Positions 38,501-61,550 of a stretch of 64,000 nt of DNA are shown one piece after another. The first letter of the stretch is position 1. Every line of letters begins with the position of its first letter. Made by a program: the position numbers and the translations under genes. The DNA lies in the NCBI GenBank assembly GCA_965178125.1, contig OZ237737.1, positions 1,488,001 to 1,552,000 on the forward strand, read 5' to 3'. The notes below the pieces were generated by a model, which saw nothing but the letters and a program-made list of their open reading frames with translations, ran no database searches and was not told where the DNA came from. The stretch comes from Bilabrum cf. latius (lineage: Eukaryota).

Positions 38501-41500
38501 ATAGCAAAGCTGAGCCTGTATCAACTCTGACATCCGACGCAGGACCGATGGTGCCAGTCACGTAAGTGCTCGTTCCTTCTGTCTGCATGTGCACCTTGCA
38601 CAGCTCTCCCGTGCACCCGATGGAAGACCCGAGCTCAATGTTGTGCTCGAACGGATTACAATTGAAGCGGAGCTCCCGGAATCCGACGCCGCTATTATAT
38701 GTAGTAAACCTAATCGCGTCGATGTTGGCGAGTGGATTGACAAAGTGGTGCTTGTACCAGCGCTTGTCCCCTGTCGTCGAAGGAGACGAGTCGGGCAACA
38801 CCTGCTGGAACGTAACACCGCCATCTGTCGATACGTGGATGTCCATCTCATGCCCCCGCGAGCTATACGCCTGGAACTCGAACGACGAAATATTTACGGG
38901 AGAATCGAAGATGGCGGAGAGCCACTACCATCTGGATGTTGAGGTCGAATAGTAGGTGTCCTCGTCGCCGTCTCTGAGTGTGCCATCGTCCAAGTACCCC
39001 ACAGGATCAGATGCAGACCTGGCTGATGAGTCCATCGTCCACTTCCCAAGATCCGAGTAAGGTGCCTGGTTCGATGGGCGAGCCAGCTCGTACCTGCCGC
39101 ACGCCCTGGCGAAGTCTGTCCTAGACCGGCCCTGGCGAAGCACGTCTGCGGTGCCTCCACTCAGCATCACACCATCGCCGACCCTGCCGTCTTCCACCGC
39201 TCCGCGAATCTTCACCGTCGCACCAGCCGTGATCCCACCGTTCGGCATCAGATGAAGGGAGTGAATCCCGAGCGAAACTTCGTTATCTGCCACGATGTCT
39301 CCATCGATAGAAGCTCGGTCGAATCGACCATCCACGATGCCACCGCGCACGATGGAAGTGGAGACCTGTTCCAGCCTTGCTGCGCGCATGGGCTCCGGAT
39401 TGTCACCACCACTGGTAGACGGCTGGGGAGCCAGGACGGTTGCCCTGGGACCGATCCGGAAGAACGACAGCGTGCTGCCCACATCGGTTGGATACGGGGT
39501 GTCCGCCTCGGGCGTGTACTACCCGGAGTTCTCGATGTAGAGCTGCTCTCCGTCCTGCGACACTACGTAGGCAGTGCCAGCGGCCCCCAGGCACTCAAAC
39601 GAGTTCGTTGATCCCCCTTGCACGTCCCAGCTAATGTCAGCGCTGAACGAACGCGGCGACCGTATGCTCAGCCTGCCACCGCTACCACCACCGGCCGCCT
39701 GGGCTATTCCGCTGCCCGCGCTCCCGCCGCCCGAAGCTGAGAGCTTGCCCTCGCCCCATATCTGCTGCGCGACCACCTGAGCTGACCCTCCGGCTCCGCC
39801 ACCGCCAGATGTGGAAGACACGAGGGTTCCCCGCTCACCGTTTGCAGAGATCACCGGCGTTGAACTCGGCTTTGCCAACACGATCTGTCCGCTCGTAGCC
39901 TCAAGCTTGATCTTGCCTCCTCCTGCTCCGCCTCGGCCGGCCACGCGACCAAAAGCAAAACCATCGAAGCCACCGCTGCCATATTCCCACGGGTTAGTAG
40001 CCAGTCCGTAAGGCGTACCAGTGACGCCCATCGGGGCGCACGGCTGAGATGCAGAGCAGAATCTCCCACCACCTCCGCCGTACGAAGCACCCAGCCCGTT
40101 ACGGATGGAAGTGTTGGCACACACAGCATCCGGCCCGTCCTCCACTCCTTGTGGAAGGCCTACCGGATTCCACGTTCGAGAGTTGTCGAACCGTGCAACG
40201 CCGGGGCCTGAATTGGCTCTGTAGCCCCTCAAATCGGCATTGATCTGACCAGAGTTCGTCAGGTCGATCTGGGCGTCCTGACCCGTGAAACCGATACTGA
40301 CGGTCGATCCAAGGACGTTCCCGGCCAACACCCCGAAGCTTTCATCCCTCTCGAACTGACCAGCCACGGAGCAGTCGTCGCCCGTGCACTGCACCACTCC
40401 GCCACTACCCAGCTGCGCGAAGGAGGGCGTGCACCTGAACCTCCAGTCGCCCAACGTGATGTGGCCGGAGGTGGTGTGCCTCCTGATCCGGATGTGGTAT
40501 GCGTTCATGATCGGATGAGACAGCACCACCCACGACACACCCGGGGTGGTCGGCATGTTTGGTAGCGTGCTTGGTTGCATCAACCTAGTCCAGTTGCCCT
40601 CTGTGTCGGGGTCAACATTCCGCAAAGTACTGTACTCGATGTACATCGTGCTGCCGCCCTGTTCGACAAGGTTATACTATCGGGAGGCGTACATGGCGAT
40701 GGCACTCACCGTTACGGGCGAGTTCCACGACGCCATGATCCAAGCAGATTTGTCGAATCCAGAGGAAGAACGATCGGTTCGAACGAAAGTCCTCATGTTC
40801 CCGTCGGTCAGCAACTCCTTTGCCTTGGACACTTCGAATGGCGCATTCACCATGGGTTCACTCAGAGAGACAGAGTGCGAGTCCAACACACGCTGCGAGG
40901 TGCACATGGGCTGCTGGTAGCCCTGCGCGCCGCTGCCTGAGGACCAAACGTGCGAATGCGGACCGGACCTCCACATGAACTCGTCGGGATCAACACCGCT
41001 CCTCGTATTGAGCGAGTCACGCACCACGACGGTGTTCTCACCCTGGATGGTGCCGTCCACGTGGAATTGAAGAGCATCTACCGCAAACGCCCGTCCTTGG
41101 ATGTAGGCAGTAGAGAGCACGTCCACACGCTTGGCGAGTACCAGCCCGCCTTCCGGTGGATGCACCCTGGCTCCCGACTAGACGATCAGGTGGTCGACCT
41201 CGAACGGGTCCTTGTCAGCGTCGGCAGTTCCGTCCGGCGCGTCTTCATACTCTGGCAGGTTGGTGGTGGCGTGCTCCGCGGCGATGTGATTGGCGTTGTC
41301 CATAATGAGAGTTTCCCATCCCTCGCTCTTGACGTAGATGGTGCCAGCACCGGCGTGGCAGGAGGCATGCACGTTGTGATTGCCGCCATAGGCCTGTGCG
41401 CTCACTGCAGGACTCATGTGGTCCTCAACCACGTAGGCGACGCGACCACCTGATCCAGCTCCGGTGCGATAGGTGCTGGATGCCGCAGCTGCCCCGATTG

Positions 41501-44500
41501 CCTGCGACCTACCGCCGCCGTACATCCGTTGGGCCTTCACCAGCACACTGCCGCCACTGCCAGCGCCGCCGAATTGGTCGCCCCCCGACAGCCTGCTGCC
41601 TTGGCCTCCGTTAGATCGGACAAGGACGGTACCAGCGGTAGCTCCGAACCATAGCGTGTCCGCGCGTATGCTGACAGCCCCACCGCCTGGTCCACCATGG
41701 CCGGAGATGCCACCGGGCATCGTGTCTTTGAGTGCAGCTCCACCAGGGGACCCAAAGTCGGTGGGATTTTTTATGCTGCCGTACACCGTTTCAACCGACG
41801 AGTACGACTCCGGGGTGTCTGCGGCGGAGCATCCGGAGCGACGGTCCACATAGCAGGACCGAGAACCGACGCCGCCATACGTCCCTCCGGCTCCAGGCTC
41901 GTTCTCTACGCACGTGCGGCGGGTCGGGGCCACGGGGCGACCTGGCGCGTTCGTGTCGGAAAACCTGAAGCCCCGGAGATTCGTGTCGATGATTTCGTTG
42001 ACGTACACGTGCCCAGTGCTCTCGATTGAAGCGCGAGAGGCAGAGAACGAGGCACCTGAAATGTGCAGGTGCGACTCCGGCACCTCTCGAGCCAACTCCA
42101 CGTCGCAGAGGTGCCCATAGCATCTGGTCTCGGACGAATAGGCGGCATGCCACCTGGGAACACCGCAGCCGAAGCGTATCTCGGACACCCCGACATATCT
42201 GTAGGACGAACTAGAGTGGCGCATGCGCCACAGGGCCGTCTTGACTGGCTCAAAGTGAAGCACGCCCGATGCACCTTCGCGGCGGACCTCGTTGTGATCG
42301 TGAGCTCTGAACTAGCCTGGGGCGAGCCTCCAGCTGGCACCATTGTCGATGGAGTATTCAAAGAACATGTACCGCGTATGAGTTGCCCAAGAGTGCCAAG
42401 CGGTAAGATGAATGGAATCGAACCAGACAGGCTCCGTAAAGTTGAACACGATCATCGCATCGATCGCACCCATGATCCCAGTCTCGATGTCGTTGTCCAC
42501 AAGAGCAGCCTTTGTCTGAGAAATAGGATTGGCTACCCAGGTGCCGGCTGTCTAAAGAGCAGTAGCCTAGACATCAAACGCGCTGATAGGGTAGACCCCC
42601 CCTGTACCCAGCTTCTGACTGCTCTCGGCACAGTAGGGCGCCAGCTTGGCGGCATGCTGGCTGCTCCCGGATGCGTACGACGAATCGACGACGCGAACTC
42701 TGCGAGTGGCCCTGAGTTTCCCCTCCAGCCTCATGGAAAGCGCGTCCACCTCGATGGAGGAGGGCCCTGTGATCTCTGCGGCGCTGGTCACGTGCACCTT
42801 CCGGGCCCTCAGAGAGCGGCCGTCAGGGATGTCTGCCCGGGCGGCACTGGACACGACCACTTCGTCGATGTAGTCGGGCTGCTTCGGCAAGAGCTCACCT
42901 GCGTGAACACCGAACAAGGGGTCATTCTCCGTTGCTTGCGCCCCGAGCATCTGCAGAAGAGCTGTGCGCTGCGTGCTCGACATGGAGGAGTTCTGGCCAG
43001 CATACGCAGACACCGAATCGACGTACGGGCGATCGCTGGATGGCCAGGGGGTCAGGGCCGAAGTGGAATTGTGCGATGTCTGCAGCACCACCTGTGCATA
43101 CCCTCCCACGTCAAGAAGCTAGGTACCTGCAGAACCATAGCACACGAACGTCTGACTGGTGCCCCCGTTGGCGGTGGCGGTGACAACGGCCTTCTCCCAC
43201 GTGGCACTTCGAACAGCGACTCGGCCTCCAGATCCACCACCACCGTGGTAGCTGCTCGTCCATGACCCGCCTCCAGTCACGTCGATGTCAAAACCACCTT
43301 CCAGGCTGCCAGCTTCGATCACCACAGTGCCTCCCGAGCCACCACCGGCATTCACCAGGCCACCCGAATGACCTCTGCCGTTCTATGCCCGGGATTCAAG
43401 CTAATCCGCGATTCTACCCGCATGGATCACGCCTCTGGGTCGGCCCCTGCTTGCCATGGACTCGCCAGCTCTGGGACCCGATGGGGCTGACCGCTCGCTC
43501 CATGGCATCGAATCCGGCAGCAGGCCTCGCCTGAACGCCTAAAGCTCTGCCTCCGACGGCACCTTGGCAGGCGCCGCGAGGGGGTAGGAGGCACCCATCG
43601 CGTGGAGTGTGGCATTCGTCACAGATGCAGCCACTGCCGCGCCGTGCGTCGCGTTGATCACAATGCGACCTCCACCACGCCCCCCGCGACCCACCTACGA
43701 GTCAAGAGTCTTCGTGTAGTCAAAACTGGACCCACCGCCCGAGCCCCAGCCCATGGAACCAGCATACATCTCAAACCATGCCACGCTGGAGTTGTACTGC
43801 CCGTTGGAAGCGCTCTCGTACGTGCTGAACCCGAGCATCTCGATGCCGTTCCCGGCAGGGTGCTCCATGCTGCCCGTGGCGAACCCACCGCGTGAGTGGT
43901 GCGACGGGTTGCTGTTGCTCGGCGTCCCGCACTCGGCCTGGTCCAAGTAGCACGACCGGGAGCCGCTGCCACCGTGCCCCGCACCAGCACCAGAACGCCT
44001 CGTGCGGCACCTGCTGCCAGTGAGGCGGGGAGGCGCGCCAGGGCCCTCGTCCGAATCGAAGCCCCGCTCGCTCACGCTGACCTGTCCGTTGAGCACGACG
44101 CGGGGAGCGCTGATGGTCACGTTAGATCCTTGGATCAGCCCCTCGTGCAAAAAGATGCTGTCGGGTCTGCCAATGTCCACGCGCACAGCGCATCCGTCTC
44201 CGTTGCAACCCAACTGTGACGTCGGTTCGAGCTCGAGAAGCATAGGCCGGCACATGAACTGCATTTCCCCGACCCCAGTAGATCCAGACGACCTATACTG
44301 CAGCTTAATGTGGCGAGTGAGCGATGGCTACGGCTCATCGTGGCTGTGTATGCCGGTCTGGTAGTACCGCGCCGACCAAGTGCCCTCGGGCCGGGCATGG
44401 CCCGTTAGATCGGTGATAGCCCAGCCGTTGTTGCTTCGCAGATTGCCGGAGCTGTAGTCGTTTGTATGGTGAACGCTCTGCCAGTCCAATGACGATGGAT

Positions 44501-47500
44501 CAGACTCTCTGATGGAATGCGTCGTCACCATCCAGTCGTGGTTGTTCATCAGTGACAATTGATTGATCGAAGTGCCCGTGACCAGCACGTGCGAAACAGG
44601 CACCACGGACGGGAACTTGACGGCAATAAAGCTCCTTGATTGACCTGTGGTAACCAAATATGTATCCCTGCGACCGTCTTTCGTTGCGTTGGGGCTCCTG
44701 TACGGGTATGAAGAAGTCGTTGTGTGCCAAGGGGTGTGGTCGTAGATCTCATAATCCAGCTCCAGGGTCGCGTCAGGCCTGCGCACGACGCGTCCGTGGT
44801 ACGAACTGTTGACGCTGCGAACAGTGCACGACTCAGCAATCCCGGGGTCCTCAGGCCCAGGGTAAAAGGCACTCGTCCCAAGCGCTTGAGCGGAGAGGAT
44901 AGGCAGCTCACCCTTGAGCGTGTCCTCTAGCTGGAGCGGCTCGGCAGGCAGCAACGAGCTGCCCGTGGTAGACACAGCCATGGAGCGCGTGGCCCACTCT
45001 GCCAGCTTGGCTGCTCGGCGAGCACGCTCCGCGTCCAGGTATGCCTTGCCTCGGTGGGAGACGTCAGTGAGTGTCAGGTCGTCTTCGGCCGTGATGTGCC
45101 CAACGGCGTGGATCTGAGCAGCATCCAGGGTCCACCGGTGGCCGGTGAGAATCGAGCCGGATTCTACCTCGACACGGTGTGCCACCAGCCAGCCCTTGTC
45201 CGCCGGCATGCGCACGTAGCCAGACCCGGTGATGACCAGCCGATCCAGCGGGATGCGCCGGGTGAGGACATCATCAGTGATCGGCGTGTACACATCGGGG
45301 TCGTACGCAGACACGCCGCTTGTGGTACGGGCAGTGATACGAGCATGGTCTTTGAGGACCAGAGAGTGGTGCACCGCCCCTGTGGTAGAATTCCCGGTCG
45401 CATTCTTTCGCAGCAGCGAGATCCACAGGGTCCCGCTTGCGCCGTACGCGGGCCGGTTGTCTACTCCCCAGCCTTCGCAGTTCGACCAGCCACCGCGGGT
45501 CAACACACTAATGCTCTGGTGCGACCAACGGGTGGCCTTGATCAGGACGCGCCCACCGGCACCGCAGCCGCTCTCGTACGAACTGTGCCAGCCGCCGCCA
45601 CCGTCGGCGCTCACCTACCCGCGGCCCTCCACGGCCCCCCTCGGACTTTCCACGCGAATGGTGCCGGCGGAGCCGCCTCCACCACCCACGTTGCTGCTTG
45701 TCACCCGGGTGCCACTCCCGCCACTTGCTCTGATCGCGTTGGAAGTAGAAATACCGACGTCACCGTCTTCAGCGACGATCCGCACAAAACCGCCGCCGCG
45801 CCCGCCGCTGCCGCTGCGCATCACACGGTTCTCGTCGTGGTGCGCAGCGCGCCCACCACCGGACCCGGAGGTCCACGGATCGGACGAGTACCCGTACGCC
45901 AACCCACCCTCGGTCAGTGGGTTGTCCCTGTAGTCATCGATAGCAGACACAGCGTAGCGATTCGCGCCGCCGACGCCACCGTGCCCCGCTCCAGGCCCAC
46001 TGACCTCGCCGACGCAGATCTCGTTGCGGGTCGTCACCGGGGCGCCTTCGCCTTCGTTGCTGGCTGGTCCCAGCCCCGATGAATCGATACTGCCCCGAAT
46101 ATCTACGGACGACGACCGAATGGTCACGTTGCCAGCTTGGATAGTGCCTGACACGCTGGTCCGCACGAGCAGAGGCTGTGCTGCCGAGTAGGTGGGGAAC
46201 TGGTCCGGCTCCTCCACCCCACCAGCAGACTCGAGCTTGTCTGGGGCATCCAAGGCGGGATAGGTGGTCTCTCCCAGTGGACCGGCCTCGATCCGTACAG
46301 AGCACACGCTGTCCGGTTGGTCGGTCTACACGGCTGCCGCAGCCTCATTTGCTTCGTCTTCACTGCGCCCGAGGGCCAGTGCCGCCCGCTTTGCCTCCTC
46401 CTGCAGCCTGTGAAGCCTAAGGTCCTCCCCGGTGCACTCCATCCTCGCAGAGTCCAGCAGCTGCACCGACCGGGCCCTGCACTCGAATGCCGCCTCCTCA
46501 AGCCGAAGCCATTGCCTCATCGTGTGCGACACTACCCTGAAGCTTCGCGTTCGAATAGGTTTGAAATGCATCTGAGACCACGCGCTAGGGGCATGGGTAA
46601 TAGAAAGCGTACTGCCACCCGCACCAGTATCCACCGGCTGGTATGCGTTCGTGTTGCCAGTCAGGCTGGCAGGAAGATCATCAGGCTCAGGAAGGTAATC
46701 CAGCCGCTATTCCTCAATACCGCCGTTTGTAGGCTCCCTGAAACGGAAGGTGTTGATGACGACGGGCGTCTCCCATCGGAACTCGATGATGCTCCAACCA
46801 GACGAGTACACTTGGATGTTGGTGCTGGCCCTGTTGTCCTTGAGCTCGTGGCCAGGTCCTCCTAGATTCGTGCCTTCACCTTCTCTCAGTGTATTCGAAT
46901 ACCATCCCAGCGTGTAATTGCGAAGCATCGCCGCCTCCTAATGGGGAGTCAGCACTCCGGTAGCACCAGACATCATGCGCTGCCCTTCTGGGCACATGTG
47001 CCAGGACGCCGTGCTCTCAACGTGCCGAGACATGGGAGCCATCGTGGCATCGGGCTAGGGTACTACCTCTGCCCCCGACTTGACGGGCGACGTGTCATCG
47101 GACTGCAGGCCCTCCAGCCCATCGTTGCCCTCAAACGTGCCGTTGCCGGTGGCCACACGGACCACCGCTCGGCGCCTCCCCCGCACCGTCCCCTCCAGCT
47201 TGACCTCGTCGGCGTTGAGCACCAGCGCGTCTGTTTCGATCCGGGCAGCAGCGCTGACACGCACCGCGCCGACACGAACCTCGGAGGCGTTCGGGAAACG
47301 GACCACCGCATTGGAGGCGACTGCAAGCACGCCAAGGTCACGGGGCAGGCGGCCTGCCGGGCCACCCCCACGGTGGGCAGCAGGAACCAGGGGCGTGTGC
47401 TCCCCGTGCGTCGACTGCCCGTATGGTTGCGTCACGATGAGGTCCTTACGCCTGTCTCCGTCTTCGATCCACACGGTGCCAGATGCTGCCGAACACGCCG

Positions 47501-50500
47501 AGCCGCCGGAACCACCGGTGGCTTGCAATCGTGAATCGAGAATGCGCATCCATTCGGTACCAACAGCGCTGACTCGGCCACCGGCACCACTCCCGGCGTA
47601 ATTGTTGCTGGATCCGCGAGATCCAATGGCCCGCAGATGCCCGCGGCCGGCCAGGTACTTGCCCATCAGAGTCACGCTGCCTCCCGCGCCGCCGCCACCG
47701 CCAGCAGCAGCCGAGTAGGGCGCCACTTCGCCGTAGGCGTGTAGCGTGGACGACGAACCCAAACTGACGAAGCTCTCAGCTTGCAGCCAGATCCTGCCAC
47801 CGCCAGAACCACCGCGACCGCCACGCACGTACGATGCTTGGGCTGCACCGGACCCGCCACCGCTGCCGTAGGCGAATGGCCGGTCGATCGAACGGGTCGA
47901 CAGAAGAGCGCCCGCGCCAGACGCAACAGTGGTGGGCGACGTGTCAAGCGCCTGCAGCACCACGATGGCAGACCCAGTGCCACTAGTCACGTCCTGCGAT
48001 TCGTCGTTTCCGGCGTAAGCCGCCCCACCGATCGGCCGCGGGCTGCACGCGTCGGAGGACGAGCACGAGGCACCGCCAGTGCCGGCGTGACCAGCCCCAC
48101 CCCCGCCTGCAGTGGTGTACCCGCAACGAGGCACCCGCAGCGGCGGTCGACGCCCCGCCCCCGGCCCCGAATCGCTGGGGTGCCCCCTCGCCGATACGTC
48201 AATGGCCCCTTCGATCTCCATCTCCCGGGCGTTCACCAGCACAGTGGAGCCGTGGATCGATGCCACCTGCTCGATGGCAAGCCTGCCGCCGAGGGAGGAC
48301 ACGTCTGCGGCCACGGCGCAGTACCTCGACTTGCAGTGCACCTCGCCGTGGTACGTGGTTGAGATGAACCGCAGGCGCATGCCAGCCATCACCATGCCGT
48401 CGCCTGCACCCGCTGACGGGTCGGAAGAGTCAACTCCTGCAGCGTCCACGCCACGGCCCTGCTGGCGCGTCCCGCACTCGAAGCTGAGGTGCGAGAGGGC
48501 GATGTAGCTATTGGACGGCTTGTACAGCTCGAAGGCCACCACCTTTACAAGGGCCCGGTCAAACGGCACCGTGAAGGGCTCCCCGTCGGCGGCCTGCAGC
48601 GAGGTCAGCGTGGAGAGGCGCACGTGCGGAGCTACCTTCCACACGGTCGTGCCCTGCTCCCGGGTGGTCTGGTACCTCAGCTGGGAAGTTTGAAGCCAGC
48701 TGGGACCGCCATGCGAGTCGCCTCCACCGCGTTTCCGAATAGCGAGCCGCACCGCACTGATGGTCACGGGGTTCTAGAAAGTAGCCCTGACAAAGTTGTG
48801 CGACTGCCGGGCCGTCACGACTCCAGTCTCGCTGTCCTCGTCGTCCTGCAGGCTCTCCCTGGACGGCTTAAGCTTGCGATCAAAGAAGTCCGTCGAGTCG
48901 TCCCAGGCCGAAGTGTTGGAGAGGGTCCAGGCTCGCAGTGCCCCCCTGCCTGGACAAGTTGGCACCTCGTCCCCGACCAGAGGGCCCTCGTCGTTGACAC
49001 CGCTGCCCATGGTGCTGACGGCCACCTGGTCTCCGTCCGGATCGTCGTCTGCATAGCTGGAAGCAGGCAGGGCACGGGCGGCGTCCTCGTCCTCGATGCC
49101 CTGCGTGGTTTGCAGCACGCCAGAGAGACCCACAAGAGTGCCCATCGCGTCCACCGAGGCAGAGCGCATGAAGAGCAGCGGGCCCACAGGCACGCGCCGG
49201 CCCTCTGCAATGGTGCCGTTGGGCAGGGGCAGAACGGCGCCGGCCGCCACGGACGCATCGAGCATGAGCTTGCGCGGCTGCGAAAACACCGCGCCAGCAG
49301 GCAGATGCGGGTACGCGTTGCCCCTCCACGGGTTTGAGTTGGTCCCCAGCAGCCAGGGCTGCCTGCTGTCGGCCTCGCTGCCCGGGATGCCGCTCCCGAT
49401 GAGTGGAAGAGACCCAGTGCCTCCCCCCTGCGCGATATACGACTCACCAGGTAGCTCGTAGTCGGGCTATGCGGCGACCCGTCCGTCCATCATGGCTTCG
49501 TCCGAGTAGCGGGAGCCGGAGGCTGGGTCTGCCGCGAGCAGGGACATCTGCTGCACCCTGACCCGAGTGGCAGCGAGCTCAATCACGGGGGCCCATGCCA
49601 GCGCGTCCTGTGGGGCGTTCGAGATGGACGCGGGTGACGAGGAGGAGGAGATCGGCGGCGGGTTCATGCCAAACTTTAGCTGCTCCTCGACCGGCACATC
49701 CTTGGCAGCAGAGGCGGCTCCCCCAAGGGCCGCCGCCCGCCGCCAGAGGGCTGCCTTGGCTCCGGAGCGAAGCACCGCAAGGCCCAGTTCATCCGCGCTC
49801 GCGGCAGACGAGATCGAGACCGTCCCGCCCGCCTCAGGCGCGGCGTTGGCGTCCTCCGCGGCCCAGTTGACCCCGGGGTGCGGCGCAGTGGCGTTGACCC
49901 CTCCCGTGGCGAGCACCTCGTCCCAGGCGAAGAGGCCGGCGGCGGTGCACGGGGGCAGCGGGGTGGCGTGGTAGCGAGTGCTGGTAGCGTAGCGCCCGTT
50001 GTAGCTGCCAATGCCGCCGTCCAGTCGCAGCTGCCCGCTCGCCGCGCTGCTCGTGTCTCTCCTGTAGAGGTAGGCAGCCTCCGAGGCGCTGATGCCCTGG
50101 GAGTTGGCCAGGTTGAGCACCGCAGTGCAGTGCCCCAGCTCGTCGTAGTCCGCCTCGAAGGGCTCAGGGGCGTTCGTGAGCACCACCACGGTGCCTCCCG
50201 CCCCTGTGCCCCAGGCAGCGCTGTTCCCCACGGCCGATGTCCTCGCGATGATGGACTGCGGGAGGTGCTTCTGACCCCCGCTGCTCGCCAGGTGCACGGC
50301 GATGCGGCCGCCGGAGCCGGTGCCCGCGCGGTAGCTGGGGTGGCAAAAAGTACCGCCAGATGCGATCAGGTGTCCCCTGCCGCGCACCTGCTGGGCGTGG
50401 ATGCGGATGGTGCCGCCCGCGCCGCCACCGCCGCACGCTCCTCCGCTGAAGCTGCCGCCTGTGCCGCTGCTATCGATGCGAGAGCCAGAATCCATTGAAA

Positions 50501-51188
50501 CATTGACGGCAGAACGTAAAATCACCACGCCGCCGCCGCGTCCGCCGCGGCCAAGGCGCTCGGAGAAAGTGCCGTCCAGCCTGTATCCCGCGCCACCCCC
50601 GCTTCCAGCCGAGTTTGGCACAATGGCAGAGCCGAATGCGTTGCCACCGACTGGCAGGTCCGTGTCTGATGTAGAACAGCCAGATCCAGCCGTGCGGTAC
50701 TGGCTGGTGCCACCTTTCCCGCCGTGCCCGCCGCCTCCCCCCGAGACGACAGCGTCGCAGCCAGCTAGGCTTCCGTTCGATGGCTTTCCAGGCCCCTCTT
50801 CTTCCGCAAGTCCCCGGCCGGTGGTCAGCAGCTGGGCGCTATCTTGAAGATATATGTTTCCTGAAGTTGTGTTGATTTCGATTCGACCAGCGGTCAGTTG
50901 GCCGTCGATTTGGGCGCTTCCCGCGACCACGGTGATGCGGCACTGCACATTCGAGCACGTCACCGAGCCTCCTTGGCGAATTTCAAGGTTCCCGGATCCA
51001 GACGCGTGCACTGCAAGCTCATTGTCAATAACATGGGCGCTGGAAACGACACATGTGGTATCCAATGTCCCGCTGTCGCAGGGGAAGGCGGCTTGTCCCG
51101 CGGCCATCATCGGCAGGAAGCACGCGCTGAATGCCAGAACCGCAAGGGTTGCTAGATTCGCGCGAGCCTTGCCCGTGTGCAGCCTCAT
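14553..51188 (-). CDS. Giant single-exon multidomain cell-surface/multipass membrane protein, about 12,211 aa, 49 in-frame TAG
   Basis: The chain of minus-strand ORFs from 51494 to 14553 lies in one frame. I read every gap and found only TAG: 49467, 48774, 47055, 46938, 46707, 46326, 45615, 44328, 43695, 43539, 43401, 43383, 43119, 42567, 42552, 42312, 41178, 40677, 39519, 38925, 37971, 37773, 35241, 35019, 34110, 32589, 32280, 32277, 31860, 30897, 30678, 30417, 29994, 29817, 28992, 28848, 28830, 27915, 27642, 26919, 26628, 25848, 23529, 23214, 21087, 20736, 19017, 18621, 16929. The start at 51188 gives the signal peptide MRLHTGKARANLATLAVLAFSACFLPMMAAG (the frame stays open a little further upstream). 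Ends at TGA 14553-14555. Confidence 0.88.
15310..16960 (-). other. Multipass (about 7 TM) TRP/FLC-like membrane domain of the giant protein, followed by a basic cytoplasmic tail
   Basis: LD*AQFIVMCGQL, then hydrophobic helices and the pattern LGPLYKRY....FFVVIL..RFLSALILVLL...PVLQ......VYVAVV...AP, typical of the Pfam TRP (fungal FLC/Pkd2-like) region. The tail has NPM/NPL motifs. Confidence 0.6.
18860..21420 (-). repeat. Cys-rich disulfide repeat array within the giant CDS
   Basis: Many copies of C.DG..N..E[TS][DG]VDCG..C..C..G..C....[DQ]C.S..C...C, interrupted by Gly/Thr linkers (GGGTGSGTGGG). Confidence 0.85.
21430..28890 (-). repeat. About 12 bacterial-type Ig-like (Big_5/SbsA-like) repeats within the giant CDS
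   Basis: Repeated D..[AP]P.[VI].S..P......V...I.[LI].F[SN]E.V ... Y.V.[VI]..G...D..GN.F.G....W.F.T (e.g. DTVAPTIVSGSP, DATAPTVLSTSP, DWIAPTLSSIVP, DVDGPILVSTVP). Several carry long insertions. Confidence 0.75.
28900..29320 (-). other. Fibronectin type III-like domain within the giant CDS
   Basis: PDAPRTV...IEVQWTRP...IWGYEVQ...FRVRSFGPSGFSDWS. The last strand is visible only when the TAG at 28992 is read through. Confidence 0.7.
29350..51080 (-). repeat. 12 diverged Gly-rich protein modules within the giant CDS, most followed by an F5/8-type-C (discoidin/galactose-binding)-like domain
   Basis: Recurring consensus G.G....GPG / GGG[HY]GG.GG / YG....P..[FY]GSGGG / GG.GGG.I.[LI] / GGG[AS]GG[ST][IV] / G[AS]GGR[IV]A[IV] / G.AGT, with cores near 50420, 47690, 45670, 43340, 41560, 39790, 38070, 36450, 34640, 33340, 31090 and 29550. 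Spacers carry L.DG...T, F..PV.[IV]..[IF], [LF]EYS.DGG.TW, F.P......[WI]R and G..E..F.C. Boundaries are approximate. Confidence 0.75.
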
Positions 51189-51578
51189 GCTGGGCTTCAC
51201 CGATGCCAGATTTACTTGGGAGGCCAGATAAGTCTCTCTCGTTGCTCTATCTGCGAGATATGGCGCGACGTTTGCAAGGGCAAGGCGTGGAGGCATTATC
51301 GTGCAAGTTTCGGCCATCCAATTCCCATCACGTACCTCCAGTATCGAAACTTGGTAAATATTATCCTTTGTGTGGAAGCTCTCCTGAATTGAAGGCCAAA
51401 TAAAGTTGGAGCAGGGTTGTTTCCCTGCGCAACTATGCGATCGTCGGTGCGCCGTGGGCAACGTTGCACTTGGTCGCAAAAAAGAAAGTGGCAAACTTGA
51501 AGCCCGTCACTCATTTGTCCCGATTATTTCTTAAATGAATGTCCCTGGTGGGCACTGTCAAGCTATCTGTTCAAACAA

Positions 51579-53034
51579 TCACAAAATTTCCTTAGTGAGC
51601 GGGTCCACCGAATCGTAAGGCGCGATCAGCTCGAACGCGGGAGGGTCCACAGGGGCGCCGTCAGGCAGCATGCCTCGATCCCGCATGGCCCTCGCTGCCA
51701 TTGGAGAGAACCCGTCCATCGCATCCAGCACCTCCCTTCTCTCCTGAAGCGCTGTCATCTCCGACTCGTAGCCTTCGGTGCCGGGCATGCCCCCAAACGT
51801 AGGCGTCGGGAGCGGCAGCGCCTCGGTCGGCTTGCGCTTGTTGCTATCCCGGACAAATACGAAGGAGCCCGCAGGCCCCGGAATGGCTCCCTGCACGTAG
51901 ATTAGGTCTCTCCACTCGTCCACCTTGTACACTCGCAGCCCCTGCGTGGTGGTGCGCTCGTTGCCCAGCCGCCCCGCCATTTTCTTGCCCTTCCAAACCT
52001 TGCCCGGCGTCGTCGAGTTGCCGATCGAGCCCGGCTTTCGGTGCGCCTTGGAATTGCCGTGGCTGGCCGGCTACCCCGCGAAATTCCATCGCTTCATCAC
52101 GCCCGCGAACCCCTTGCCCTTGCTCCACCCCACAACGTCCACCCTCTGCCCCGGCACGAAGTGCCTCGCCGTCAGCTCTGTTCCCTCAGGCAGCAGCCCG
52201 TCTTCGCTGACCTCAAACTCGGCCAGCCGGTAGTTGGGCTCGAGGCCCCTCTTCTCGAACTGCCCCAGGTGGGGCTTGTTGGCCCGCTTGGCCTTGAGGA
52301 AGCCGCCCCCGATCTGCAGCATGTTCTTGCCCTGCGCGTGCTCCTCTGCTCGCTTCACCTGTACCACCTGGCAGCGTTCTAGCTGCGGATCGTGAGAGGG
52401 GAATTGGAGCAAGTTTTGCGAGACTGGAGGAGTGATGATAAAGTCTTGACGAGAGGCGCGCTGCCAGGGGGGATGCCTTTCTCACTTTGATTACCGTCAA
52501 TGCCATCCGCCTCCCCCAGGGGTCCCACTCCGGAAGCATTCCGCATTTCAATCCAATAAGAGCAGTTCGTTTCGTCTGCGGTGTCCAGCCTGCTTCGTCC
52601 AGGCTGAGCGGCTCGGCAACCTTTTGATGGGCCATCATGGCAGGTTCCGTCATAGCAAACTAAGACTTCCGATTCACAGCTTTGGGCTTATTGATATCTC
52701 TCCATCGATCTCTGCCGCTATACACGGTGTGCACTTCCCGTCGTACATCGATGCCCTCCTCGCCGTCATGCTTGGCTTCCTCAAGCAACTACTTGGCCAT
52801 TGCAGCCGACTCTGGCGACCCATCGAACACAAAGTTGTTATCCATTGCACCAGACTATGTCTTAACGGCAGAATCGCTTGCTCGTGCTCCGGAAGAGAAG
52901 CTTCGAGCCCGGCCGGTTATAAACTATCTCTCTGGCGCTGCACATACGGCACTCAACGAAGCTGCCGACCTATGAAGGATACGATATCCCTTTGATAACC
53001 CAAATCGAGCGCGCGACAGTCGCATGCACGCCAT
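51579..53034 (-). CDS. MRPL3: Nucleus-encoded mitochondrial ribosomal protein uL3m; join(53034..52486,52382..51579), about 450 aa, 5 in-frame TAG
   Basis: Clear L3 motifs: [84 protein letters not shown]. Start gccATGG at 53034 gives an Arg/Ser/Ala-rich presequence with RSFSS. TAG at 52924, 52855, 52789, 52660 and 52071; ends at TGA. Confidence 0.93.
52383..52485 (-). other. Spliceosomal GT-AG intron (103 nt) in uL3m
   Basis: Donor GTGAGA at 52485, acceptor CCGCAG ending at 52383. Removal repairs the frame change and joins LTVIK to LERCQVVQVK, as expected for L3. Confidence 0.9.
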
Positions 53035-53171
53035 GGCCGGTAGCTACGCAGGTATATTTGACTTGTGAACACGATCAGGCTTTTGCTGAAACAGCTCGTT
53101 ACCAATTACTCATCACACCGGCCGTGGCATCAAGAAAACTGTTCACCGCATTATTGCAGCTTAGTTCCGCG

Positions 53172-53605: not shown

Positions 53606-56600
53606 TCATCTTGACGCGTGCGCAGCCTGCAGCTGCCTCAAGAACTGCGCGATGACCCTGCTCCCCTGCACGAGATTCATGAGGCGCACGCTCTCGTTGG
53701 GCAGGTGCGGCCGGTCGCAGGGCTGGCCGAGCGGTATGTGCACCGCCCTGCAACCGAGCACCCTCTCGAGCATGGGAGCCGTCCGCATCGTGCCTCCCTC
53801 CTTGACCATCTGCGGGACCTGACCCCAGACCCTCTCCACCGCCCTGGCCGCCGCCCGGTAGGCCTCCCCTCTCAGGTCCGCCTGCCACCACCCCGCCTGG
53901 GACTCCTCGTCGGCCGACACCACCAGGCGGTTCCGGCTGCGCCGCGATGCGTGCACGTGCTCCAGGTGGGCCTGGATGGCGCCAACCACCAGTTCCGGTT
54001 TCTGGTCAGGCACGATCCTCGCCGACACGGTTGCAACCGCGCGGGAGCCGATGAGGCTGGCGTTCCCCGCGGTGGTGTCGACCGAGTGCACCGTGACTGT
54101 GGGCTCCCGCCAGCGCCGCGCCAGGGCCTGGGCCCCGGGACCGAGGCCTGCGGAATCGTACTGCGCCTGTGGCGCGGGGCTCAGACTACCACTGGCCCCA
54201 CCAATCCCCCTGCCCCAACCGCCACTGCTGCAGCCACCCCTTCTGGCGCCCGCCATTGCATTGTCCTCGCTGCTGCTACCCCTCCTGGCGCCCGCCATTG
54301 CATTGTCCTCGCTGCTGCTACCCCTCCTGGCGCCCGCCATTGCATTGTCCTCGCGGGTCTCGACACTCCCTGCCGATGGAGACGAGGCCGGACCAGCATC
54401 GGTAGCGGTCAGTTCCCTGTGTTCCCCAGCCAATTCTCTGTGTTCCCCAGCCAGTTCTCTGTACATGGCCGCCTCCTCAGTCCCCAGCGGCCGCACCGCG
54501 CCCCATATCCCGGGGACCGCCGGCCTCCCATCGTCTCCTGCTTGCAGAATACCAAGAAGGGCGCACAGGTCGACGAGTGGCTCGGCACCAAACCCGCCAT
54601 CCACGCCAGAATGCAGGCCGCCCTCGCCATCCTCTCCCGCGCCGGCATCGTCCCGCCCCTCCCCTTGCCGCGGGCTCCTGTCAGGCGACGGGGGCGGCTG
54701 CTCCATGCTGCGCAGGGTGGTGGCCGTGCCTGCGCACGCTGTGCGGCGGGCGGCATTCCCCGTCGCCGCGTCTGCTGCCCGTTGAGGCGCCATCGCGACG
54801 GCCCCTGGGACCTTGCCCCTGCTCACATCGTTGCCCAGCCACGGCAACTCAACGGACACCTGCATGCTGACGTGGCCTCGCATCCCGGTGACAAGGCTGG
54901 GCCTCTCGTCCGAGTGCCACAGGGAGTTGCACGCCACGATCGCGTCCACTCCGTCCAGCCAGCCCTTGCGGCGCGCTGCCTCCACGGCCTTGCGGTAGCC
55001 CACGGAGCCGTTCTCCCCCTCGCCCTCGACGATGAAGACCACGTCGGGCGGGGCCGCGCGATCGCCGTCGAAGCCCCTGTGCACGGCCACCGCGGCAAGC
55101 AGCGCCGCCAGGATGGGCCCTTTGTTGTCCGTGGCCCCTCGGCCGAAGAGCCTCCCGTCTCTTGCCACCAGCTGAAAGGGCGGGCTCTTCCAGGCATGGG
55201 CGGGGGCCTCCGGCTGCACGTCGTAGTGCCCAAGGAACAGCACCGTCCTGCGGCGGCTAGCACCAGCACCAGCACCGGCACCAGCACCAGCACCAGCACC
55301 GGCACCAGCACCAGCACCAGCACCAGCACCAGCACCAGCACCAGCACCAGCACCAGCACCAGCACCAGCACCAGCACCAGCACCAGCACCAGCACCAGCA
55401 CTGGCACCAGCAGCTCTCGTCTCGGCCGTCGAAAGATCCGTTGTACTCGTCACACGATCAGCGTCAGCGTGGATGAGTCGCCCCACCACCACGGGATTGC
55501 CGCCCTCCTGCCCCTGCACCGTACCGACGCTCATGCCGGCCTGCGCCATCCAGCCGCTGAGGAGGTCAGCCGCGGCCCAGCACGCATCCCTGCGCCTGGG
55601 GTCCTGGCTGACGCTCTGCACGGACACGAACTGACGCAGGAGGGACACCATGGGCGAGTGGTCTCCCGCGTGCAGGGACAGGGCAGCGTCAACCACAGGG
55701 AGGGCGCGTGCTGCCCCTCCCAGACCACGCGATTCTATGGGTGATGCCCCGTCTGCGGCGCGGCTCCCAGTGCCACCGTACGAGACCCCACCTGAGGCAC
55801 CGACTTGCAACCCCCCGGCGGACATCGGCAGCGAAGGGGGCACAACGCCGTGACCCATGCCGCCAACAGCCAGCGTACCCCCATCCCGACCTACGACATC
55901 GAGTCTGAGTACCGCCGCCCCCGCGTCCCCAAGCCCCGCCACTAGACGGATGGGGCCACCGCTGGCTGCACTAGTGCCGGCTCGGATGCCCGTTCCCTGC
56001 CTGACGGTGGTGGGAGCAGGACACAGTGCCTCAAGGCGGGGCAGGGCCGGTCCTGCCTGCGATGCCGCGCGCGAGCTGCGGCCGTCGTGAGAAGCCGCCC
56101 CTGCCCCGCTCCCGCCGGCGCCCCCGCCCCTTCCGTCAGCAAGCTCCATGCCAGCGACAAACTCGAGCGACGGCAGCGAGCGCAGCTCCACGCCGCCGTC
56201 GCTCGTACCGCACGCAACGAAGCGACTTGTGCATGGGCTGGAAGTTTCGGCGGAACTCTAGTAGGCTGTGGTAGAACGTAGCGATTGCGATGTAAAGCTA
56301 TCGTGCACTGCCAGGAGGCAGCTGACCTGACCACCTGTGCCTACAGCACTTGTACCTGGATCTGCACCTGCACCCGCTAGAGGTCCAGACGCAAGGCCAA
56401 GCCCCTCCTGTCCCCGCCCGCCGCCGGGCTGCTGCCCCCGCCCCCTGCCCCCCACATGCACGACCCGCCTGCAGTGCCCCTTGACGGGGTCCCACAGCCG
56501 CAGCGACCCGTCCATCCCCCCCGTGCAGAGCATCCAGGCGGGGCTGGGCCCCTGGGCAGGACGGGCGAAGGTCATGGCCTGCACGGGACCGCGGTGACCC

Positions 56601-57574
56601 GCCAGCTCCCGCTCCAGGGACATCTCGAAGCGGACTGTCCCGTCCACGCCGGCGGGGGCTGGTAGAGACAGGCTTCCGTCCGTTGGTGTGGCAGATGGCG
56701 CGGGGGCGTGCGCCGGGAGGAACGGGGGGCTGGCCAGCCGGCCGTCTTTCGCCATCGCCGACTGCCCTGACTCTGACTCTGGCTCTGGCCCTGGTCCTCC
56801 ACCTCCACCCCGTCCGCTGGCCTCTTCGGCGGGGCGTGGTGATCGGAGGGTGGCCGAGGCCCTCCAGATCCGCACCATCCCGTCGGTGCCCCCGGTTGCA
56901 ACCAGTGCGCGCTCCCCGGGGAGGGCTGGGGGCACGGCATCCAGAGAGTACACCAGCCCGTTGTGCGCCCGCACGCAACGGATGCAGCCGTCTAGGGCGA
57001 CCCGAAGGGGGCAGCTGCTGCCGCCACCACCACCACTCGCTCTGACTCCACTGGGTGGTCCGCTGGCCGCACGGTCCGATGGCTTGGGTACCTCCACGGA
57101 TGACACTCGCAGGGTCGCAAGTGCGACCACGGTGCTCTGGCAGCCGAGCAGAATCCCGAGCACGGTTTCGTTCGGAGTCACCCCGCCACCCAGCGATGGA
57201 GTAATATCTATCAACTTCGCGCACTGAATCATACCTTGTCCTATACGAAGCTAGAGCTTGCGGGTCAGCCGGGGGGCCCCCGGCAAGTCGGTGCGCTAAT
57301 GAAGCACGAACACGCGCGCCAGTCCGCCAGCGCAGCCGGACACAACGACGCTGGCTGAGCTACCGTTGATACGTTCAGACGACGATACGCATATGACAGA
57401 GTGTTCGTGAGCTGCCCCGTCGCGAGACTCTGCTATAAGGGTCTGCATTGAGGACAGCAATTGCAAGCTCCCGTTCGCCATTCCGAGCACCGTGCACCTC
57501 AGCGGATCGGGTGCGCCACAGGCGGATACTACGCCCTAAAATGATGGCATTGCCATTTCGATTTCATGCTGCAT
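53606..57574 (-). CDS. WD40 + M20 metallopeptidase fusion (Dug2-like architecture), about 1,320 aa, 4 in-frame TAG
   Basis: ORFs 57296-57490, 56258-57232 and 53606-56191 share a frame, joined by TAG at 57536, 57296, 57251 and 56258. WD repeats: AHNGLVYSL..ATGGTDGMVRIW, GHRGPVQAM..CTGGMDGSLRLWD. M20 motifs: GHYDVQP, GRGATDNKGP, EGEGENGS, LHSGVDGG, EGGT, HLPNE. Start uncertain (57574, 57556 or 57550); ends at TGA. Confidence 0.82.
54237..54354 (-). repeat. 42-bp coding tandem repeat, about 2.8 copies (EDNAMAGARRGSSS); a nearby 21-bp repeat (ELAGEHR) lies at about 54408-54461
   Basis: Near-identical copies of CTGGCGCCCGCCATTGCATTGTCCTCGC on the + strand, in frame inside the M20 region. Confidence 0.9.
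55259..55408 (-). repeat. Hexamer microsatellite (AGCACC)n, about 25 units, encoding (Ala-Gly)n
   Basis: Directly visible; in frame just before the TVLFLGHYDVQP strand of the M20 domain. Confidence 0.95.
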
Positions 57575-57729
57575 ATCGCAGGAATGCGGCTGATTGCTCG
57601 ATTCTGAAATCGAAGCATGTGACGAGGACTGCAAGTGCCTCGGCAGCGTTCACAAGAACAGTGCTGCAGACTTAGTCCGAAGCAGATTACTTCATTTCGG
57701 CGGCAAGTTTGCATTGAAATAGTACTAGC

Positions 57730-59754
57730 ATGGCTGACGGCGGGTTGTTGCCCCGTCTGAACTTGGAAACTGCAAGGAAATCTTTCGGTGTGGACCGCGA
57801 GGCCGCAAGCGACCCTTCCAAGCTAGAGTCTGCCGCAGAGGAGCAGCAAAACGAGCTGGAGGCGCTGCAGAGTATATATGGCGAGCTAAGCGACCGCGAA
57901 GCCAAGGTTCCTGGCCCTAAGTCGGGTGTGCTCGTTCTGGCGGCAGCCGAGGGTGTTGGGCCCAGGGTGTTTGACGTCGCGATCACTGCAGAGGACAACC
58001 CAGACGCGAAACCGGGTGACACTCCTGCATCTTGCATGCTCCGGGTGGCGTATTCCCCCTTGTATCCAGACAGCGCGCCGCTGCTCGAAATTGTCGGACC
58101 TTTTGGGGGGTTTCGAGCGAACGAGGGCATGCGAGACCGCATGGTGTCTGGCCTCAGCGACCTTTCTCGGCGCAACGTTGGCATGAGTCACATTCATCTG
58201 TTAGTAGACGAAGCTGCGAGCAGGCTGAAGGACGAGGCGAGGCTGGCGGCGGGCGGAGGGGGTAGTTTGTACGAGCAGCTTATGCGCAAGCGGGACGAGG
58301 AGCGCGCCGCGGTGGAGGCAGCCGAGAAAGAAGTCGCCGATGCCAAGAAGAGAGCCGCTGCCGATGAGCTGGAGAGGCAGGCGCGCGCGTCGAGGAGCGT
58401 GGCGGGGCTGAGCCAGGCTCGTCGCGACGACGCGGACGAGGAGGACGACGAGGACGGGCTGGCGGCTCGGGCCCGCCGAGGCTGGGGCACGCAGGTGACC
58501 AAGGAGTCCTTCGCGGCGTGGAGGCTGGGCTTCTTCCGGTAGAAGGTGCAGGCGTTCGTGGACGGTGGCGAGTCTCTGGCCGCATCGGAGAGGATGGCAG
58601 CCAAGTTGGATGGCGAGGACGGCGAGGACGGCAAGGGCGAGGGGGAGGGAGCCGAGGGGGAGGGGGGTGCGGCGGCAGGGGGCGCGGCGAAGTCCGCTGC
58701 TTAGGAGGCGCGGGAGGCGGCAGTGGAGGAGTTCGAGAACACTTCCAAGCTGCCTGTGCCCCCCACCGCGGAGGAGGCGCGGGAGCTGTGGAAGCGAGCG
58801 GCCGACAAGGGCATGGTGGAGGGCGGGCTGGGTACTCTGGTGGTGGGCGGGCTCGTGGTGCCCGGGTCCAGGCTGCCGCCCATCATGGGTAAGATGCAGG
58901 GAGAGCCCGTGTCTGCGTCCACCGGCAAGCAGCATTTCCTGGACTAGGCCGCCAAGGGGGGGGCTGGCACTATGGCTGTGGGGGCAGACCAGGCGGCGGC
59001 GCTTGCTGAGGCAGCCGCTGCCCTCAGAGCAAAGGACGCCGCTGCTGCCGCTGCTCCTGTGGTTGCAGGAGACGAGGACCAGAAGTAGGCAGGCGCTTCT
59101 TCCTCCGCTGCCTCCAAGTCGAGTTCCGGTGCCGGTGGTGCGGCTGGGGGGGCCTCGTTGCTGGAGGGTGTTGACGTCGGTCTCATGGAGGCAGTGGCGG
59201 CTGGACTGGGCGATGAAGGGGACTTGGATTTAGATTTGGAAGATGACGATGACCTGGATGATGATGATGATGATGATGGCGGCGGCGGCGATGGGAGCGG
59301 GGATTCGGGTGCGGGTGCATCCAGCGGGGCAGGTGCCAGGGCGCCTGCGCCCGCTCCCGCGGCCTCGACCAGCGGGGGAATCGAGCGATCCGTGTCTGGC
59401 TCGACTGGGGCAGCGACGCCGGGCGGCAATAGCGCGGCGGGCGAAGCCGACTACCGCGCGATGCTGGTCCGGACGGCCATCGAGGGCGCAGAGGCGGCTG
59501 CGATTGCCACGGGGGCGGGGAGGGAGGTGCTCGTGAGCGCGGTGGAGCGGGCCAAGACGCAGCTCGAGGAGCTCAGGAAGGAGGCGGAGGAAGGCACGGC
59601 TCCTGCATCTGCGGCTCCAGCAGAAGCGGGTGCTGGGGCGGGCTAGGGCAGTGCCAAAGAGGCTGACGAGGGCGCGGCGGGCGGCGATGCAGCCAGCAGG
59701 CGAGAGCGAAGACGCGCTCGTCGGGCGAAGCGGAAGGAAAAGAAGGCGTCATGA
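57730..59754 (+). CDS. RWDD1: RWD-domain protein, RWDD1/Gir2 (DFRP2)-like, with low-complexity expansions; 674 aa, 5 in-frame TAG
   Basis: EEQQNELEALQSIY, YPDSAP, VGM.HIHLLV (RWD); GTQVTKESFAAWR and TGKQHF (DFRP C-terminal motifs); acidic tail. TAG at 58540, 58702, 58945, 59086 and 59644; ends at TGA 59752-59754. Confidence 0.8.
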
Positions 59755-59841: not shown

Positions 59842-61368
59842 TCAGCCCGACGCCGACATCGTTTCCAGGTGCAGCAGAAATTTAACCAGAGTGCGCGCAT
59901 TCCTGTCGACCGGACATGCGTATACCTGCGGGCGAGTGGTGGAATCCAAGCAGCCGTTGCGGCCCCAAACCCCGTTGCATGAGGAGGCACCGTGACCGTC
60001 CAAGCGGGCAACTGCTTCGGCTGCGGGATGCTTGGAGTTGGCGCGTGCCTGGTCAAGTCGCTGCCCGTTACGAGCACCATTGGAAATATGCATGCGTTTC
60101 TGGTTTCTGTACAGCGTCAGCGGGTGAATGTACATCCGTAGCTTGTTGGCCAAGGCTGCGTCGAGCTGCAGCACCCGATCCGTCCACTCCGAGCACAGAG
60201 ACCTGTTGCCAAACCGAAGGATTCCGTCCGGCGTCCAAGCACCACCGCTGGCAGAGTCATCCTCCGGCAAGGCGGATGCATTGGTCACCACTCCCACGGT
60301 CCTCAAGACCTCGAGGGCGTGCCGCCGCACCTCTGGCCTCTACCACTGCTTGCTCTCGCCTACGAGAGCGTCGGTGCCAGCGACCGAGGGCGATGCTTTG
60401 GATGCCTGTGATACCACTAGTTTTGGTGCCTTGAGTGGCTTCCAGCACCTGTCCTGGTCGATGGTGACCCACGCCCCGGTGTCGGCGTCGACAAAGTGGC
60501 CGTGGTCGGCCCTCTCCTCATGCCGGCACCCGCTCAGAAAGAGGAACACCATGTATCTCGCCAGCGAAGCAAGGCACTTTTCGTACCTTTGATTGATCTG
60601 AAGGGCGTCCTTCGAGCTCCCTTCGGAGCTCCCGGCCAGCAGCAACCGGCTTGGAGCCGTGGTCCGTACGCACTGCATGGCCCGCGGCGGCGGAGGGGCA
60701 CCGGCCTGCACCGCCACATCGGTGTGCCGTGGATTTGTGTCCGGCGCTTGAGTGCTCTTGAATGCGTCCGCTCCCACGGGCTATTCAAAAGGTCGCAAAA
60801 GCTGTAGCAAACGCCCTTCATACCACATCACCGCCGACCCAGACACTGCAGCATCTCCACCCGGCGCATTCCCCCGCATCTCTCCGGAAGTCGGTTGCCT
60901 CAACACTGACGATAATATGGATCGAAATCGTGGAGGCCCTGCGCACTTTTTGAGAAAATCCCTCGCGCAGTTCGGGTTTGAATTGCTGCAACGACTCGAC
61001 ATCAATTTTCCAAGCGGTAGCGTCATCCAAGCGGTGCATGGAACAAGGCCAATTCCACCTAGCACCTGATCCAAGTGCCATACTGCGCTCTATCTCCAAG
61101 CTAGCTCTCCATTTTCCTACTATCCTGGCTTAAAGAGGGCTGCCGTGCTGTAGTTGCCGCCCGCTAGATAGCGGCTCCGCGACGTAAGCCTTACTCGTGC
61201 GGCGCAGCGACCCAAGAAGAATTCATCTACTTGATTTATATCAGGATGAGGGCACACGATGCCGTTGGTGCCGATGCCATCGTTGCGACCTGTTGTAGGA
61301 ACAGCGCAAAGCATCTGCCCGACGATGTAAGCTAGCAGTGGGGAAAGACGAAGAACGCGTCCCCGCAT
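59842..61368 (-). CDS. Secreted FAM20/four-jointed-like atypical kinase-fold protein, possibly a pseudokinase; 508 aa, 5 in-frame TAG
   Basis: ORFs 61120-61368, 60781-61074, 60340-60777 and 59842-60330 share a frame, joined by TAG at 61120, 61117, 61090, 60781 and 60340. Signal-like N-terminus; ALFKP, R*SAVWHLDQVLG..LVP, YMVFLFLSG and WVTIDQDRCW parallel the FAM20/PI4K-type motifs FKP, E.AA[FY]HLD..L..VP, .FDFL.GN and LDNGR.F. Ends at TGA. Confidence 0.62.
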
Positions 61369-61550
61369 GCCCTTGATTTAAGACAAATGCAGATGCTGCA
61401 TTGGATACGTAAGTGTTGCGAAAGTGGTGCTGTCGGTCCGCGGCGGCCCAGAGTTTGCATATCCGGAACTCATCCACGAGAGGCTGCCAAGATCCATGGT
61501 TCTGCTGAGCTTGATGCAGGAATTCAGCATCGCAGAGGTTGGTGCAGTGT

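Follow-up and report, generated by a model that had tools for sequence, protein, structure and literature searches.

UAG as a sense codon, probably for glutamine, in a 64-kb stretch of DNA with a mitochondrial-type uL3 gene

The long frames of the window and their in-frame TAG codons

The window, by which we mean the whole stretch of 64,000 nucleotides that was analysed, is GC-rich (about 62%) and contains nine long frames when TAG is left open. Across their 19,786 codons these frames hold 82 in-frame TAG triplets, a frequency of 4.1 per 1000 codons, and no TAA or TGA; the frames were delimited stop to stop at TAA or TGA, so the absence of these two triplets is partly by construction. Under this stop-to-stop definition, seven of the nine frames end at TGA and two at TAA. 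CAG occurs 523 times in the nine frames, CAA 106 times, GAG 804 times and GAA 200 times. At each of the eight positions listed in the initial annotation (20736, 21087, 45615, 48774, 61090, 58540, 8602 and 43119), a TAG does lie in phase with one of the long frames, as had been claimed.

Most of the TAG sites (49/82) sit in one giant frame on the minus strand (14553–51506), a single intron-free frame of 12,317 codons that lacks TAA and TGA and encodes a repeat protein. An open frame of this size (37 kb) places TAG as a sense codon far beyond chance. The protein is assembled from 12 Gly-rich β-helix and F5/8-type-C modules, Big_5 Ig-like repeats and Cys-rich repeats, and has a TRP-channel-like membrane C-terminus. 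Its residues 7480–8600 match a database fragment, P0007, with 295 of 317 residues identical (93%). Among the matches listed, residues 1480–3070 have two distant homologues (27–29% identity) and residues 3071–7479 have five, including one from Cafeteria. The latter, a Cafeteria roenbergensis protein named hypothetical at NCBI, has 3,978 residues and is 27% identical to the giant protein; among the matches listed it is the only lead with a named lineage and might, weakly, point towards the stramenopiles. Another distant homologue is a metagenome protein of 3,590 residues.

Several further frames accompany the giant one. The frame at 53606–57649 (minus strand) combines WD40 repeats with an M20 peptidase domain; it also contains a long Gly-Ala run derived from a (GA)n-like repeat, together with tandem repeats of 14 and 7 residues. 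In the frame at 57718–59754, the RWD domain alone was matched in solved structures. For the frame at 59842–61377 (minus strand), an exhaustive search of 1.84 billion representatives returned two relatives only, both short fragments, namely P0005 (54% identical) and P0006 (33–34%). Each of the two is recorded on two contigs and they have their longest contig, of 4,446 bases, in common; P0005 and P0006 may be parts of a single gene that stops have interrupted. The frame itself looks like a lineage-restricted gene of no recognised family.

Contigs from four public sequencing runs showed no difference from the window over 27600–47599 (20 kb). The TAG codons are therefore not errors of a single assembly, and by the same token the four runs offer no polymorphisms for exploitation. 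None of the runs recorded as containing this DNA is an RNA run. They carry three coded organism labels and come from three coded studies, and the source may be an organism that is widely associated with other samples or contaminates them. A relative of part of the window was found on a 4.6-kb metagenome contig (L001), which is syntenic with approximately 49000–53100 of the window, encodes a uL3m protein 85–88% identical to that of the window and also has in-frame TAGs. An exact 40-base search of viral_contigs gave 0 matches, and no relative was obtained from genome_contigs with the ARM protein or alignment A1 as query, or from viral_contigs with uL3m or A1.

Explanations that do without translation of TAG itself, such as dead genes, a wrong assembly or editing of UAG in the transcripts, are scarcely credible. 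A dead gene could not have kept 12,317 codons clear of TAA and TGA, the identity of four runs over 20 kb speaks against a wrong assembly, and an in-frame TAG is conserved in the uL3m gene of L001. TAG is clearly a sense codon in the window.

The uL3m gene and its conserved columns

The frame at 51579–52481 (minus strand), with TAG translated as X, gives a product of 300 residues that matches the Pfam family Ribosomal_L3 (PF00297) with an E value of 1.8e-20. The product also matches 76 solved uL3 chains, of which the best four are mitoribosomal uL3m or mitochondrial L3 (E values from 1e-57 to 4e-55). The count of four mitoribosomal chains among the best five follows the molecule names where these are given, the remaining chains being ones that we take to be mitoribosomal. 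An in-frame TAG stands at 52071–52073, where the plus strand reads CTA and the minus strand hence TAG; it is residue 137 of the frame, in the motif WNFAG?PASHG (the question mark denotes TAG here and below).

The gene appears to be split in two. Exon 2 (51579–52382, minus strand) ends with a TGA stop at 51579–51581 and is matched by Pfam and by the solved chains from about residue 33 on; it would start at about 52382, directly after a CAG acceptor. The frame at 52213–53109 (minus strand) carries the conserved N-terminal block of uL3, can be aligned to L001 and is Arg-rich in its N-terminal part. Exon 1 is accordingly placed at 52485–53034 (minus strand), its putative limits being a Met near 53034 and a GTGAGA donor after 52485, and it has in-frame TAGs at 52924, 52855, 52789 and 52660 (minus strand). 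A GT..AG intron of about 102 nucleotides would then occupy approximately 52383–52484 (minus strand). Another gene, at 10619–13651, has an in-frame TAA at 12404–12406 (minus strand) that is probably intronic. The genes of the window thus seem to be intron-poor and not intron-free.

The Ribosomal_L3 domain, the best matches to mitochondrial chains, and the predicted N-terminal extension and predicted intron identify the gene as a mitochondrial-type uL3. It is a real conserved gene with an in-frame TAG (52071), which is found in L001 as well, and its C-terminus is the same in the window, where it is followed by TGA, and in L001, as is expected if UAA and UGA serve as stops.

The residue at the 52071 site was examined in homologues. 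Alignment to the E. coli K-12 record (87 of 196 residues identical) places the site at residue 130 of the 209-residue E. coli L3, as counted from the alignment, and this residue is Gln, in agreement with the initial annotation. By the same alignment, the site is distinct from the methylated Gln150 of the E. coli protein. Five solved chains carry Q, G, L, M and L at the site, which bears out the further claim that other L3 proteins have Leu, Met or Gly there. In a set of 80 uL3 loci from a metagenome scan, the column contains L 58 times, G 10 times, Q seven times, D twice, and H, TAA and TAG once each; Glu is absent, and L001 keeps the TAG. The site is therefore compatible with Gln, Leu or Gly and speaks against Glu; given the dominance of Leu in the column, it carries little weight by itself. 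With 58 of 80 homologues, Leu is the commonest residue at a site where TAG is retained, which counts in favour of UAG encoding leucine.

A second column is dominated by Gln. Residue 38 of uL3m is encoded by a CAG (Gln) codon in the window (52368–52370, minus strand) and by TAG in L001. Gln occupies this column in 59 of the 80 homologues, Arg in eight and Glu in six.

Several other metagenome uL3 loci (L036, L037, L070, L073 and L074) have TAA and TAG in frame, in several cases on near-invariant Gln columns, and these loci look like users of codes in which TAR specifies Gln.

Glutamine and glutamate as the residue encoded by UAG

Codon-level comparison was made between the window and L001, whose alignment comprises 1,187 columns, 12 of them with TAG in either sequence. 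TAGs of the window are paired in L001 with GAG three times (49467, 48774 and 52789), with CAC once (the exon 1 site at 52660), with GTT once in a poorly aligned part, and with TAG once. In the opposite direction, TAGs of L001 are paired in the window with CAG, AAG, AAC, CTG and GCG, the last again poorly aligned. Two of the GAG pairs lie in the giant protein, at residue 680 (49467–49469, minus strand) and at residue 911 (48774–48776, minus strand); the latter is part of an F5/8-type-C module, whose sister repeats have E, D, G, P, N or T at this position. With an empirical matrix drawn from the 1,187 columns, the 10 informative pairs gave natural-log likelihoods of −31.5 for Glu, −33.6 for Gln, −40.1 for His and −45.2 for Leu, so that these pairs alone put Glu ahead of Gln by about 2.2 units. 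Under a Gln code, the synonymous exchange of TAG and CAG should be the commonest partner at the DNA level; it was seen in only one of the 10 pairs, and this rarity counts against Gln.

These data underlie the main rival reading, in which UAG is decoded as glutamate by a tRNA(CUA) derived from tRNA-Glu, with UAA and UGA as stops. Four TAG sites of the window are paired with Glu, three of them as GAG, one base away from TAG, and the 48774 site falls in a column of E, D, G and P. The initial annotation proposed Glu columns at 58540 and 8602 as well. The conservation of true Glu codons argues in the other direction: Glu is kept in 70% of its columns between the window and L001, whereas a TAG is matched by Glu or by another TAG in only four of 11 columns. 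In uL3m, Glu is found in none of the 80 homologues at the column where the window and L001 both retain TAG, and in six against 59 with Gln at the residue-38 column where L001 has TAG.

The frame at 59842–61377 gave a further constrained site. The TAG at 61090–61092 (minus strand) lies in the motif NGELAWR?SAVWHLDQ, and P0006, the sole homologue that covers it, has Gln there within a 16-residue block that is otherwise identical. This fully conserved motif speaks against Glu. The earlier assignment of the site to the Glu of a kinase αC-like helix is not borne out, as the frame matches neither a Pfam family nor a solved chain and its homologue carries Gln. Two adjacent TAGs nearby (61117–61122, minus strand; KPG??ENG) are paired in P0006 with Leu at 61120 and with Gln at 61117.

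In the giant protein, fragment P0007 supplies two more pairs. The TAG at residue 7553 (28848–28850, minus strand) corresponds to Gln and that at residue 7559 (28830–28832, minus strand), six codons away, to Glu. P0007 terminates exactly ahead of a CAG of the window, as it might if the relative had TAG there.

Taken over close relatives, the partners of window TAGs are Glu at four sites (three as GAG at the DNA level) and Gln at three, or at four when E. coli is included; a further Gln comes from the CAG of the window that faces a TAG in L001. The full tally covers 16 partner residues, made up of the 10 L001 pairs, five further pairs and the E. coli Gln at the uL3m site, of which Glu accounts for 4/16 and Leu for 2/16. 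In a combined likelihood, the L001 pairs were scored by the empirical matrix and the five further pairs by BLOSUM62 conditionals, and the uL3m column entered as a profile of reduced weight; the conserved 61090 motif was handled conservatively. Relative to Gln at 0, Glu scored −2.7 natural-log units, His −13.1, Lys −14.1, Leu −16.6 and Tyr −26. A flat prior turns these values into 0.93 for Gln and 0.07 for Glu; the 2.7-unit lead comes from about 16 sites analysed with simple models of substitution. The initial annotation had held Gln to be the best single fit beside a real Glu-like signal, with neither proven, and this judgement stands, Gln being 2.7 units above Glu and at least 13 above the other residues.

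Repeat modules were used as an additional source of columns. The alignment comprised 30 modules, 12 from the window and 18 from the distant homologues P0003, P0004 and P0008, and placed 20 TAG sites in match columns. In controls, the true residue was recovered for 2% of the Gln sets and 11% of the Glu sets, so the test has no power between the two. Consistently, the Q-minus-E score of the TAG set (+1.25) falls between those of true-Gln sets (6.6 ± 5.7) and true-Glu sets (−2.2 ± 5.7). Compared with true single-residue sets, the TAG set had z values from −0.4 (Lys) to −15 (Cys), with −2.8 for Gln and −3.4 for Glu. The repeat columns reject A, C, D, F, G, I, L, P, V, W and Y (z of −4 or lower) as well as S (−3.6), and the residues rejected are those well conserved in the repeats. 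An earlier version of the test based on HMMs mirrored background frequencies alone. At 22 TAG sites, the distant homologues P0003, P0004 and P0008 had mixed partners and gave no signal. A classifier of neighbour composition, applied to 82 sites, assigned the same Q-minus-E score to true-Gln and true-Glu controls. Protein Atlas scores for the C-terminal domain of the frame at 6790–10470 were below 0.9 and not informative.

Individual repeat columns were also inspected. At 43119–43121 (minus strand), the TAG occupies a β-helix column in which the sister repeats mostly have V, I or L, with W twice and A, G and Q once each; the hydrophobic character described earlier for this site is thus evident, V, I and L predominating. 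Altogether, two or three TAGs occupy hydrophobic repeat columns. For the Cys-rich repeat at 20736, sisters with Gln exist as had been reported, although they make up only two of the 11 sisters read by eye. The DC?S repeats around 21087 carry Q or E, just as described. At 39519 and 37773 (minus strand), TAG falls in the same alignment column of two repeat modules, where the residues of the sisters include Y, H, N, V, S and T.

The hydrophobic columns, together with two Leu partners and the Leu-rich uL3m column, are what a reading of UAG as leucine can draw on, and there is precedent for it in a rhizarian and some ciliates (PMC5304391 and PMC11687900). Leucine, or any other single residue such as Lys, His, Tyr, Trp or Ser, is nevertheless highly improbable. 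The combined likelihood sets a distance from Gln of 16.6 units for Leu, 13.1 for His, 14.1 for Lys and 26 for Tyr, and in the repeat control the true sets of Leu (z −4.9), Tyr (−4.2), Trp (−4.3) and Ser (−3.6) score far above the TAG set.

An ambiguous UAG has also to be weighed, inserting both Gln and Glu or read by several near-cognate tRNAs, with TAG tolerated wherever either residue suffices. Equal numbers of Gln and Glu partners, two of them only six codons apart in the 93%-identical P0007, are in line with such decoding, as is the finding that TAG repeat columns are less conserved than nearly any single-residue set (z −0.4 to −15). Against it, TAG is kept at the constrained uL3m column, L001 has a TAG on a Gln-dominated column, and loci that resemble plain TAR=Gln users show a mixed pattern too. 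This reading is very unlikely, and just as unlikely is its corollary, that dual Gln/Glu decoding would represent a living ambiguous intermediate of stop reassignment, possibly in a stramenopile protist.

The uL3 loci with in-frame TAA and TAG provide a control for the mixed pattern. Recoded stops do fall on near-invariant Gln columns in these loci (three of three TAA in L036 and two of nine recoded stops in L073), yet most of them lie on K, E, A, R, L or H columns, including seven of nine in L073. Glu-like sites are thus normal under a Gln code.

From these comparisons, the most probable reading is that UAG encodes glutamine in the nuclear DNA of an intron-poor eukaryote, with UAA and UGA still serving as stops, and we favour it with fair though not strong confidence. 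Glutamate remains the less likely choice, at a level well below that of glutamine and well above that of the other alternatives. The constrained sites, that is, the two uL3m columns and the 61090 motif, all appear to favour Gln, and the Glu partners seem to sit in lineage-specific, less constrained stretches. Glutamine is also the commonest meaning of a reassigned UAG in eukaryotes.

Under the glutamine reading, the residue at 52071 of uL3m would be Gln, as in E. coli L3 and some mitochondrial-type uL3 proteins. UAG would be decoded by a tRNA with the anticodon CUA, most simply a tRNA-Gln(CUG) changed once at position 36 and charged by GlnRS, and the release factor eRF1 would no longer recognise UAG. 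No tRNA gene was detected in the window by ARAGORN or by Rfam at gathering thresholds (0 matches), nor on the L001 contig by ARAGORN, and Pfam scans found no eRF1 gene among the window frames. Many of the TAGs could be recent first-position changes of NAG codons (CAG, GAG and AAG) at weakly constrained sites, which would explain the frequent Glu partners. At such tolerant sites, the partner would reflect mutation and codon abundance, GAG being 1.5 times as frequent as CAG, and not the encoded residue. The control with the other uL3 loci supports this view.

Comparison with known codes and significance

Classical codes in which UAR specifies Gln are used by many ciliates and by hexamitin diplomonads (NCBI table 6). 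The window resembles them in the probable Gln at UAG, and metagenome uL3 loci that look like users of such codes have recoded stops on the same two uL3 columns; the window differs in that these codes also reassign UAA, and only UAG is open here. For glutamate, the ciliate PL0344 reportedly reads UAG as Glu and has UAA reassigned too. In Blastocrithidia UAR encodes Glu (PMC12153298). The main rival reading here, UAG as Glu, has its known counterparts in these two codes. Unlike in both of them, where UAA is reassigned as well, there is no in-frame TAA in the 19,786 codons of the window frames (which were cut at TAA and TGA), and the conserved columns favour Gln.

Codes in which UAG alone has changed are closer to the present case. 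In the nuclear code of Iotanema spirale, UAG encodes Gln while UAA and UGA are stops (PMC5304391). The window likewise has UAG alone reassigned, UAA and UGA as stops and Gln as the likely residue. Iotanema is an anaerobic fornicate, whereas the organism of the window has a gene for a mitochondrial ribosomal protein, a GC content of about 62% and a Cafeteria homologue (27% identity); Gln is its probable but unproven residue, and no tRNA gene was detected in the window. In the phyllopharyngean ciliates Hartmannula sinica and Trochilia petrani, UAG is putatively Gln and UAA is the preferred stop (PMC11687900). Both cases are UAG-only changes with a putative Gln proposed from genome data; in contrast to the UAA preference of these ciliates, TGA is the commoner frame end in the window (seven of nine, against two TAA). 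The UAG-to-Leu codes of the rhizarian exLh and of an uncultivated phyllopharyngean lineage, described in PMC5304391 and PMC11687900, respectively, are UAG-only too, and the uL3m column and a few repeat columns look Leu-like here. Unlike in those lineages, Leu is far behind Gln in the combined likelihood of the window and fails the repeat control.

As far as PMC5304391 and PMC11687900 go, nuclear UAG-only reassignments with UAA as a stop comprise one rhizarian, one fornicate and a few ciliate lineages. A full-text literature search found no report of nuclear UAG reassignment in stramenopiles, and one stramenopile review had genetic codes only in its reference list.

The conflict between Gln and Glu partners is a caution for methods that infer codes from few sites. 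Recoded stops lie mostly at weakly constrained positions, so their partners may reflect mutation more than the encoded residue. The practical consequence is considerable. Without the right code table, gene models and protein predictions break about every 240 codons, in this organism and in its relatives; the database fragments P0005, P0006 and P0007 look as if they had been cut at TAG through use of the wrong table. Few nuclear genomes have UAG alone reassigned while UAA stays a stop, and the case described here would mean that the change also arose independently in a further part of the tree.
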